Positions 34,682 through 35,554 of a stretch of DNA of 64,000 bases are shown here, one piece after another. The translations under genes and the position numbers were made by a program. The stretch is taken from the NCBI RefSeq assembly GCF_017348835.2, contig NZ_CP071375.1; one strand, written 5' to 3'. The stretch comes from Escherichia coli (lineage in GTDB: Bacteria > Pseudomonadota > Gammaproteobacteria > Enterobacterales > Enterobacteriaceae). The stretch's first letter is position 1. Each line of letters begins with the position of its first letter. Under the pieces are notes generated by a model. It saw only the letters and a list, made by a program, of their open reading frames with translations. It searched no databases and was not told where the DNA came from.

Positions 34682-35554
34682 ATGGATGCACCGAGTACTA
34701 CACCGCATGACGCGGTATTTAAACAATTTTTAATGCATGCGGAGACGGCTCGCGACTTTCTGGAGATACATTTGCCAGTGGAATTACGCGAACTTTGTGA
34801 CCTCAACACGCTTCATTTAGAGTCGGGGAGTTTCATTGAAGAGAGCCTGAAAGGACACAGCACGGACGTGCTCTATTCCGTGCAAATGCAGGGCAATCCC
34901 GGTTATCTGCATGTTGTGATTGAACACCAAAGCAAGCCGGATAAGAAAATGGCCTTTCGCATGATGCGTTATTCTATAGCCGCCATGCATCGGCATCTGG
35001 AGGCGGATCACGACAAACTACCGCTGGTAGTGCCGATTCTCTTTTATCAGGGCGAGGCCACACCTTATCCGCTCTCAATGTGCTGGTTTGATATGTTTTA
35101 CTCTCCGGAGCTGGCGCGACGCGTCTATAACAGTCCTTTCCCGCTGGTGGATATCACCATCACACCGGATGACGAAATCATGCAACATCGGCGGATTGCG
35201 ATTCTCGAACTACTGCAAAAACATATTCGCCAGCGCGACTTAATGTTATTGCTGGAGCAACTGGTCACGCTGATTGACGAAGGGTACACTAGCGGAAGTC
35301 AGTTAGTTGCCATGCAAAACTATATGCTGCAACGCGGTCATACTGAACAAGCGGATTTGTTTTATGGTGTGCTGAGAGACAGGGAAACGGGAGGGGAGTC
35401 TATGATGACGCTGGCGCAGTGGTTTGAAGAGAGGGGAAGACAGGAGGAAAGGCAAGAATTCGTCCTGCGTCTTCTGAATAAAGGAATGTCTCGGGAAGAC
35501 GTTGCAGAGATGGCAAATTTACCCCTTGCCGAGATTGATAAGCTGATTAACTAA
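34682..35554 (+). CDS. rpnC: recombination-promoting nuclease RpnC (YhgA/transposase_31-like PD-(D/E)xK protein)
   Basis: 290-aa ORF MDAPSTTPHDAVFKQFLMHAETARDFLEIHLP...; strong internal SD plus in-frame ATG-ATG at 35402. Confidence 0.85.
   Translation: MDAPSTTPHDAVFKQFLMHAETARDFLEIHLPVELRELCDLNTLHLESGSFIEESLKGHSTDVLYSVQMQGNPGYLHVVIEHQSKPDKKMAFRMMRYSIAAMHRHLEADHDKLPLVVPILFYQGEATPYPLSMCWFDMFYSPELARRVYNSPFPLVDITITPDDEIMQHRRIAILELLQKHIRQRDLMLLLEQLVTLIDEGYTSGSQLVAMQNYMLQRGHTEQADLFYGVLRDRETGGESMMTLAQWFEERGRQEERQEFVLRLLNKGMSREDVAEMANLPLAEIDKLIN
35402..35554 (+). CDS. putative separately translated C-terminal module of RpnC (RpnS-like small protein), in frame within rpnC
   Basis: SD gggaggggag (35389-35398) then ATGATG; 50-aa product MMTLAQWFEERGRQEERQEFVLRLLNKGMSREDVAEMANLPLAEIDKLIN. 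Confidence 0.5.
   Translation: MMTLAQWFEERGRQEERQEFVLRLLNKGMSREDVAEMANLPLAEIDKLIN

Follow-up and report, generated by a model that had tools for sequence, protein, structure and literature searches.

An internal ribosome-binding site and in-frame ATG-ATG within Escherichia coli rpnC fit a gene-within-gene toxin-antitoxin system, next to a stand-alone second copy of its C-terminal domain

The window, a stretch of 64,000 nucleotides from Escherichia coli (contig NZ_CP071375.1), carries the gene order yadE-panD-rpnC-(rpnCSs)-panC-panB. The gene of interest, rpnC, is located between panD and panC, followed by a short second gene that resembles its 3' end. The principal features, all on the plus strand, are as follows.

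34682..35554, + strand: rpnC (yadD), full-length RpnC-L of 290 amino acids (aa), a PD-(D/E)XK-type nuclease with a C-terminal oligomerisation/antitoxin domain
34700..35302, + strand: N-terminal YhgA-like / Transposase_31 nuclease domain, residues 7-207 (Pfam PF04754, E = 2.7e-87)
35262..35290, + strand: weak candidate internal sigma-70 promoter, TGGTCA-17-TACACT (relaxed scan, 8 of 12 consensus positions)
35389-35398, + strand: internal Shine-Dalgarno (SD) sequence GGGAGGGGAG, with tandem GGAGG/GGAG cores in codons for Gly-Gly-Glu
35399-35401, + strand: spacer TCT between the SD and the first ATG (ATG1)
35402..35407, + strand: in-frame ATG-ATG, predicted internal translation initiation site of rpnC-S, rpnC codons 241/242
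35402..35554, + strand: predicted rpnC-S coding region with stop codon, 50 aa from ATG1 or 49 aa from the second ATG (ATG2)
35432..35455, + strand: hypervariable region of four-amino-acid (12-nt) repeats, two units, RGRQ EERQ
35623..35832, + strand: rpnCSs, stand-alone second copy of the RpnC-S domain, 69 aa, four repeat units, own ATG and modest SD AAGGGA

E. coli strain PE164 matches the stretch at 100% identity, and there the open reading frame is annotated as rpnC (recombination-promoting nuclease RpnC). The PF04754 match covers positions 1-201 of the 203 in the model, and the protein scored 268.8 bits with the Rpn family model TIGR01784 (cutoff 52.1; E = 6.5e-80). With the RpnA equivalog model it reached 316 bits, below the 583-bit cutoff, which makes RpnA a paralog. 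The position at the locus and the near-identity to the K-12 protein identify the gene as the ortholog of rpnC and not of another rpn paralog. Compared with RpnC of K-12 MG1655, protein identity was 95% overall and 100% over residues 1-250, a segment in which all 16 nucleotide differences are silent. The 1.55-kb stretch of the window was at least 99% identical to only 15 of 5,482 matching records. RpnC-S had no separate product annotation in any E. coli record viewed.

Read directly, window positions 35380-35410 are cagggaaacg ggaggggagt ctatgatgac. The original prediction had placed an SD sequence at 35389-35398, followed by an in-frame ATG-ATG at 35402, and both coordinates and content proved exact. 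ATG1 occupies 35402-35404 and ATG2 35405-35407, with 35402 in the rpnC frame. The core GGAGG (35390-35394) lies 7 nt upstream of ATG1 and the second core, GGAG (35395-35398), 6 nt upstream of ATG2; in this tandem arrangement each ATG has one core at a usable spacing. Translated from 35402 to the stop codon at 35552-35554, the internal open reading frame yields the 50-aa product MMTLAQWFEERGRQEERQEFVLRLLNKGMSREDVAEMANLPLAEIDKLIN, which is the same as the C-terminus of RpnC, as had been claimed. As is characteristic of Rpn genes, a ribosome-binding site and an in-frame internal start are thus found at the beginning of the C-terminal tail. The predicted RNA folding in the vicinity of the internal start was no different from that of shuffled sequences (z = 0.17), and an Rfam scan of 34400-35950 returned zero matches.

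The C-terminal tail is homologous to the RpnS domain of other Rpn proteins. Searched against the PDB, a profile of 14 RpnS-like tails matched 7TH0_A, the crystal structure of RpnA-S, in a single stretch (E = 1.8e-10). Matches to PPR and designed-repeat proteins that ranked above it in this profile search were rejected as sums of many sub-threshold repeats. A search of the PDB sequences with RpnC as single query gave only LapB and TrpR, both weak and spurious; it took the profile to reach 7TH0. The Pfam domain DUF4351 matched the tail weakly (E = 0.04). An AlphaFold2 model of the 50-aa RpnC-S was all-helical (pLDDT 80). RpnA-L/RpnA-S, one of the closest known systems, shares family and architecture with RpnC. 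A Foldseek search of the PDB with this very short model gave nothing significant (best E = 0.44); the top, non-significant matches were generic HTH domains, consistent with the HTH-like relatedness described by Zhong et al.

The repeats start at residue 11 of RpnC-S, inside the interval of 8-20 residues past the initiating Met that is typical of Rpn proteins. The window allele has two units, compared with four in K-12 (KGIE KGIQ QGRQ EVSQ) and up to nine in strain ATCC 25922, and the sampled E. coli rpnC alleles range from two to nine. At the repeat region K-12 carries 24 additional nt, corresponding to the units KGIE and KGIQ, and because these are absent here, RpnC-S has 50 aa in the window and 60 aa in K-12. 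The tail otherwise differs from K-12 by a few substitutions and ends in ...KLIN instead of ...KVINLI. Across E. coli alleles the length of the tail after WFEE varies by four-residue steps; RpnC-S would therefore be shortest in the window, at 50 aa, and reach 78 aa in ATCC 25922. This difference in repeat number from K-12 had been missed in the original prediction, as had the stand-alone rpnCSs downstream.

The initiation site is conserved. Its SD and ATG-ATG bases are identical to those of K-12, with two substitutions in the surrounding 150 bases, and the arrangement GGGAGGGNAG-TCT-ATGATG (that is, GGGAGGG[G/C/A]AG-TCT-ATGATG) is kept in nine further E. coli rpnC loci, the SD and ATG-ATG being fully conserved among the sampled strains both with and without rpnCSs. 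We further compared eight plasmid-borne Rpn homologs from Salmonella, Klebsiella, E. coli and Providencia. These share the RpnC-like domain order, with an SD-like motif and internal start followed by four-amino-acid repeats, but are only 43-55% identical to RpnC. In all eight, the homologous codon 244/245 is an ATG or GTG in frame that opens the motif M-T-[IL]-A-[QE], with GGAG, GAGG, GGGG or GGAGG about 8 nt upstream of it, although the residues encoded ahead of the start vary (H-G-D-A-L, H-E-D-K-L, H-Q-E-V-I). In most of the plasmid rpn genes this homologous start is the best or second-best internal pair of SD and start codon. The plasmid SD motifs are weaker than that of rpnC (predicted dG about -6 versus -10.8 kcal/mol).

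The segment directly upstream of the internal start, codons 181-240 (window 35222-35401), is markedly less polymorphic than the rest of the upstream coding region. Among ten E. coli alleles, 7 of its 60 codons were polymorphic versus 61 of 180 in codons 1-180 (Fisher p = 8e-4). This dip fits embedded expression signals, but the recombination history within a sample of ten alleles could also produce it. A sigma-70 consensus scan at the standard threshold found no promoter inside rpnC; the relaxed scan yielded the candidate at 35262-35290 as the sole one, and it falls in this low-polymorphism stretch. The stretch with its candidate could mark the internal promoter reported from dRNA-seq.

An internal start from which the RpnC C-terminus is made separately as a small RpnS antitoxin, as originally proposed, is the published architecture of K-12 rpnC itself. 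Zhong et al. 2023 (PNAS; PMC10400941) reported that each of the five rpn genes of E. coli K-12 contains an internal site of translation initiation. For rpnC, initiation was seen in Onc112 and retapamulin Ribo-seq (their Fig. 2D), and with chromosomal SPA tags all five RpnS proteins were detected, RpnC-S included (their Fig. 2G). Inhibition by RpnC-S of the SOS induction caused by RpnC-L (dinD-lacZ) depended on the repeat number in K-12 (their Fig. 4D), one added repeat unit abolishing it, and the RpnS antitoxins were paralog-specific. Transcription start sites were found by dRNA-seq within every rpn gene, giving a shorter and more abundant transcript; the main text gives no coordinates for them (PMC10400941). 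Removal of the internal start rendered RpnA, RpnB and RpnP2 toxic, and purified RpnA-S formed complexes with RpnA-L and blocked its DNA cleavage. The proteins for which growth toxicity and inhibition of the nuclease in vitro were demonstrated are RpnA, RpnB and RpnP2 but not RpnC; protection against phage was shown for the plasmid-encoded RpnP2 only. Mutations of the SD and ATGs that abolish the initiation peak or the small tagged product were reported for rpnA and for a C. difficile rpn gene (PMC10400941). The internal start of yadD (= rpnC) had been listed earlier by Meydan et al. 2019 (bioRxiv 10.1101/520783), together with locally enhanced conservation at synonymous sites.

Taken with these reports, rpnC in the window is very probably a gene-within-gene toxin-antitoxin system, in which the internal start would produce an RpnC-S that restrains the nuclease RpnC-L. 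The K-12 gene resides at the same panD-panC locus and shares the SD and ATG-ATG bases, residues 1-250 and the tail domain, and because the initiation-site bases and these residues are identical, the K-12 results transfer directly. The full open reading frame would give RpnC-L, a PD-(D/E)XK (YhgA-like) DNA nuclease that, if unrestrained, is expected to cause DNA damage and an SOS response. A separate round of initiation would take place at the SD (35389-35398) and ATG-ATG (35402/35405) within the gene, probably for the most part on a transcript that is shorter and more abundant and comes from an intragenic promoter. The product would be a helical RpnC-S of 50 aa (or 49 aa) that matches the RpnC-L C-terminal domain residue for residue. 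By analogy with RpnA, RpnC-S presumably forms a physical complex with RpnC-L through the shared domain, with its long first helix, and thereby blocks the nuclease activity. Because the same DNA encodes both, toxin and antitoxin would always be equal in repeat number, here two. That RpnC-S is translated and inhibits RpnC-L in a repeat-matched way comes from the literature on the K-12 allele; for the two-unit allele of the window both are expected from its sequence identity.

The gene-within-gene reading of rpnC is thus correct but not new, since it was shown by experiment in K-12 in 2023, and as K-12 has the same bases at the initiation site, the experiments suggested with the original prediction have in essence already been done. 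A published gene-within-gene antitoxin was re-identified from raw sequence, which adds no new biology; the case nevertheless shows that such systems can be recognised by a strong SD and an in-frame ATG where two domains meet. PADLOC 2.0 contained no model matching RpnC, and the evidence did not place RpnC among anti-phage defence systems. For RpnC, an anti-phage role may be suggested by analogy with the plasmid-encoded RpnP2.

The exact product depends on whether translation begins at ATG1 or ATG2. Initiation at ATG2 (35405), giving a protein of 49 aa beginning MTLAQ, instead of at ATG1 (35402; 50 aa), is a plausible though less favoured variant. In all eight plasmid homologs the initiating Met or Val aligns with M242 and not with M241, the preceding residue there being Leu or Ile, and the second GGAG core at 6 nt would serve this codon. 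The 7-nt distance between GGAGG and ATG1, however, is near-optimal, and the ATG-ATG is invariant across the sampled E. coli alleles, which speaks against exclusive use of ATG2; both ATGs may therefore be used.

A further source of antitoxin could be the downstream gene. rpnCSs starts 68 nt downstream of rpnC and is a diverged duplicate with DNA homology to the rpnC 3' end. Genes of this type, to which 35623..35832 belongs, are known from other strains: Zhong et al. 2023 (PMC10400941) described rpnCSs in "some E. coli strains" and concluded that the rpnCSs and rpnESs duplications arose independently, and their main text does not report expression of RpnCSs. A similar gene (at least 80% coverage) was found in 1548 of 5426 complete E. 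coli genomes, and in strain JNEC-KY204 it is annotated as "RpnC/YadD family protein" (WP_000404127.1). It is absent from K-12. The closest parallel is rpnE with ypaA (rpnESs), where a stand-alone RpnS-like gene likewise lies directly 3' of an rpn gene.

The stand-alone RpnCSs might then be the operative antitoxin in this strain and the internal start redundant. Its 69-aa open reading frame is intact and conserved, has its own start and lies close to rpnC, and the analogous YpaA/RpnESs is expressed in K-12 (Zhong et al. 2023, PMC10400941). Against this, RpnCSs has four repeat units and the resident RpnC-L two, when a single added unit sufficed to abolish inhibition in the published assay (PMC10400941), and the internal SD and ATG-ATG are conserved whether or not a strain has rpnCSs. 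We therefore consider it very unlikely that RpnCSs replaces the antitoxin translated from within rpnC. The linker lengths of the S and Ss versions differed in all six distinct configurations of rpnC with rpnCSs sampled in E. coli. From the repeat mismatch and the published effect of one extra repeat it follows that RpnCSs would be non-cognate for the neighbouring RpnC-L. Instead of a spare antitoxin, RpnCSs may be a donor cassette for recombinational resetting of the tail, a decoy, or an antitoxin against foreign rpnC, a proposal that we put forward as speculative and rather improbable; the reading as a silent donor cassette is drawn from the mosaic tail sequences seen among alleles.

The motif could also be coincidental, GGGAGGGGAG merely coding for Gly-Gly-Glu and the two Met residues being ordinary ones, with no separate protein initiated. 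To judge its strength, anti-SD duplex energies were computed over the 17 nt ending 3 nt upstream of each internal in-frame ATG in every ATG-started open reading frame of 150 aa or more, on either strand of the window. The rpnC site had the lowest predicted energy of all 461 sites (-10.8 kcal/mol; runner-up -9.4). When the peptide RETGGES was held fixed and re-encoded with the codon usage of the window, though, about 8% of the encodings were equally strong, because Gly-Gly-Glu is SD-prone. The statement that so strong an SD is unlikely by chance was thus borne out by the rank among internal ATGs but weakened by the synonymous encodings, and SD strength alone is therefore suggestive, neither decisive nor a proof. 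What decides for the internal start is the comparative data and the published experiments, not the strength of the motif: a start with an SD-like motif occurs at the same position in homologs of 43-55% identity that have different residues there, and for K-12, identical across the SD and ATG-ATG, peaks in initiation profiling and a tagged small protein have been published. Coincidence is left with a negligible probability.

Pausing of ribosomes at SD-like sequences has been proposed for E. coli and is disputed. A motif that served mainly to pause elongation or to signal co-translational folding of RpnC-L, and not as a start site, would suit its position exactly at the boundary between nuclease domain and tail, but this reading is very improbable, as it leaves unexplained both the in-frame start codon conserved just downstream in every homolog and the tagged small protein of K-12, and no stable local RNA structure was predicted.

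Several further observations concern the surroundings of rpnC and its relatives. The ancestral ACGGGAGGGGAGTCTATGATGACG (window 35384-35410) has decayed to ACGGAGAGAAACCAGGCAGACG within rpnCSs (window 35640-35665). The duplication began upstream of the old internal start, and the open reading frame is now opened by a new upstream ATG (35623) with the SD AAGGGA (dG -5.3). Inside rpnCSs, at 35678-35702, lies a 12-nt tandem repeat of 2.1 copies, AGAAGGGATATC, the DNA counterpart of the KGFQ/KGYQ units and likely a slippage substrate. RpnCSs (35623-35829) weakly matched RmrA in PADLOC (E = 5e-4; profile positions 290-336 of 357), which may reflect a shared helical or HTH-like tail. The annotation of rpnCSs in RefSeq is inconsistent, ranging from pseudogene fragment ("missing N-terminus") through "hypothetical protein" and "transposase" to "RpnC/YadD family protein"; examples are the window itself (35653-35832) and the sampled loci L001 (2754-2933), L003 (1368-1577) and L017 (1398-1565).

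In IncI-type plasmids, each rpn gene is followed by a small open reading frame annotated as "hypothetical protein" (loci L006, 1517-1723; L007, 1550-1756; L009, 1577-1759; L010, 1467-1748) and a divergent HTH regulator. E. coli O157:H7 has no rpnCSs and instead carries, between rpnC and panC, an unrelated sequence of about 300 nt (locus L019, 1473-1770), so that the spacer between these two genes varies among E. coli lineages.
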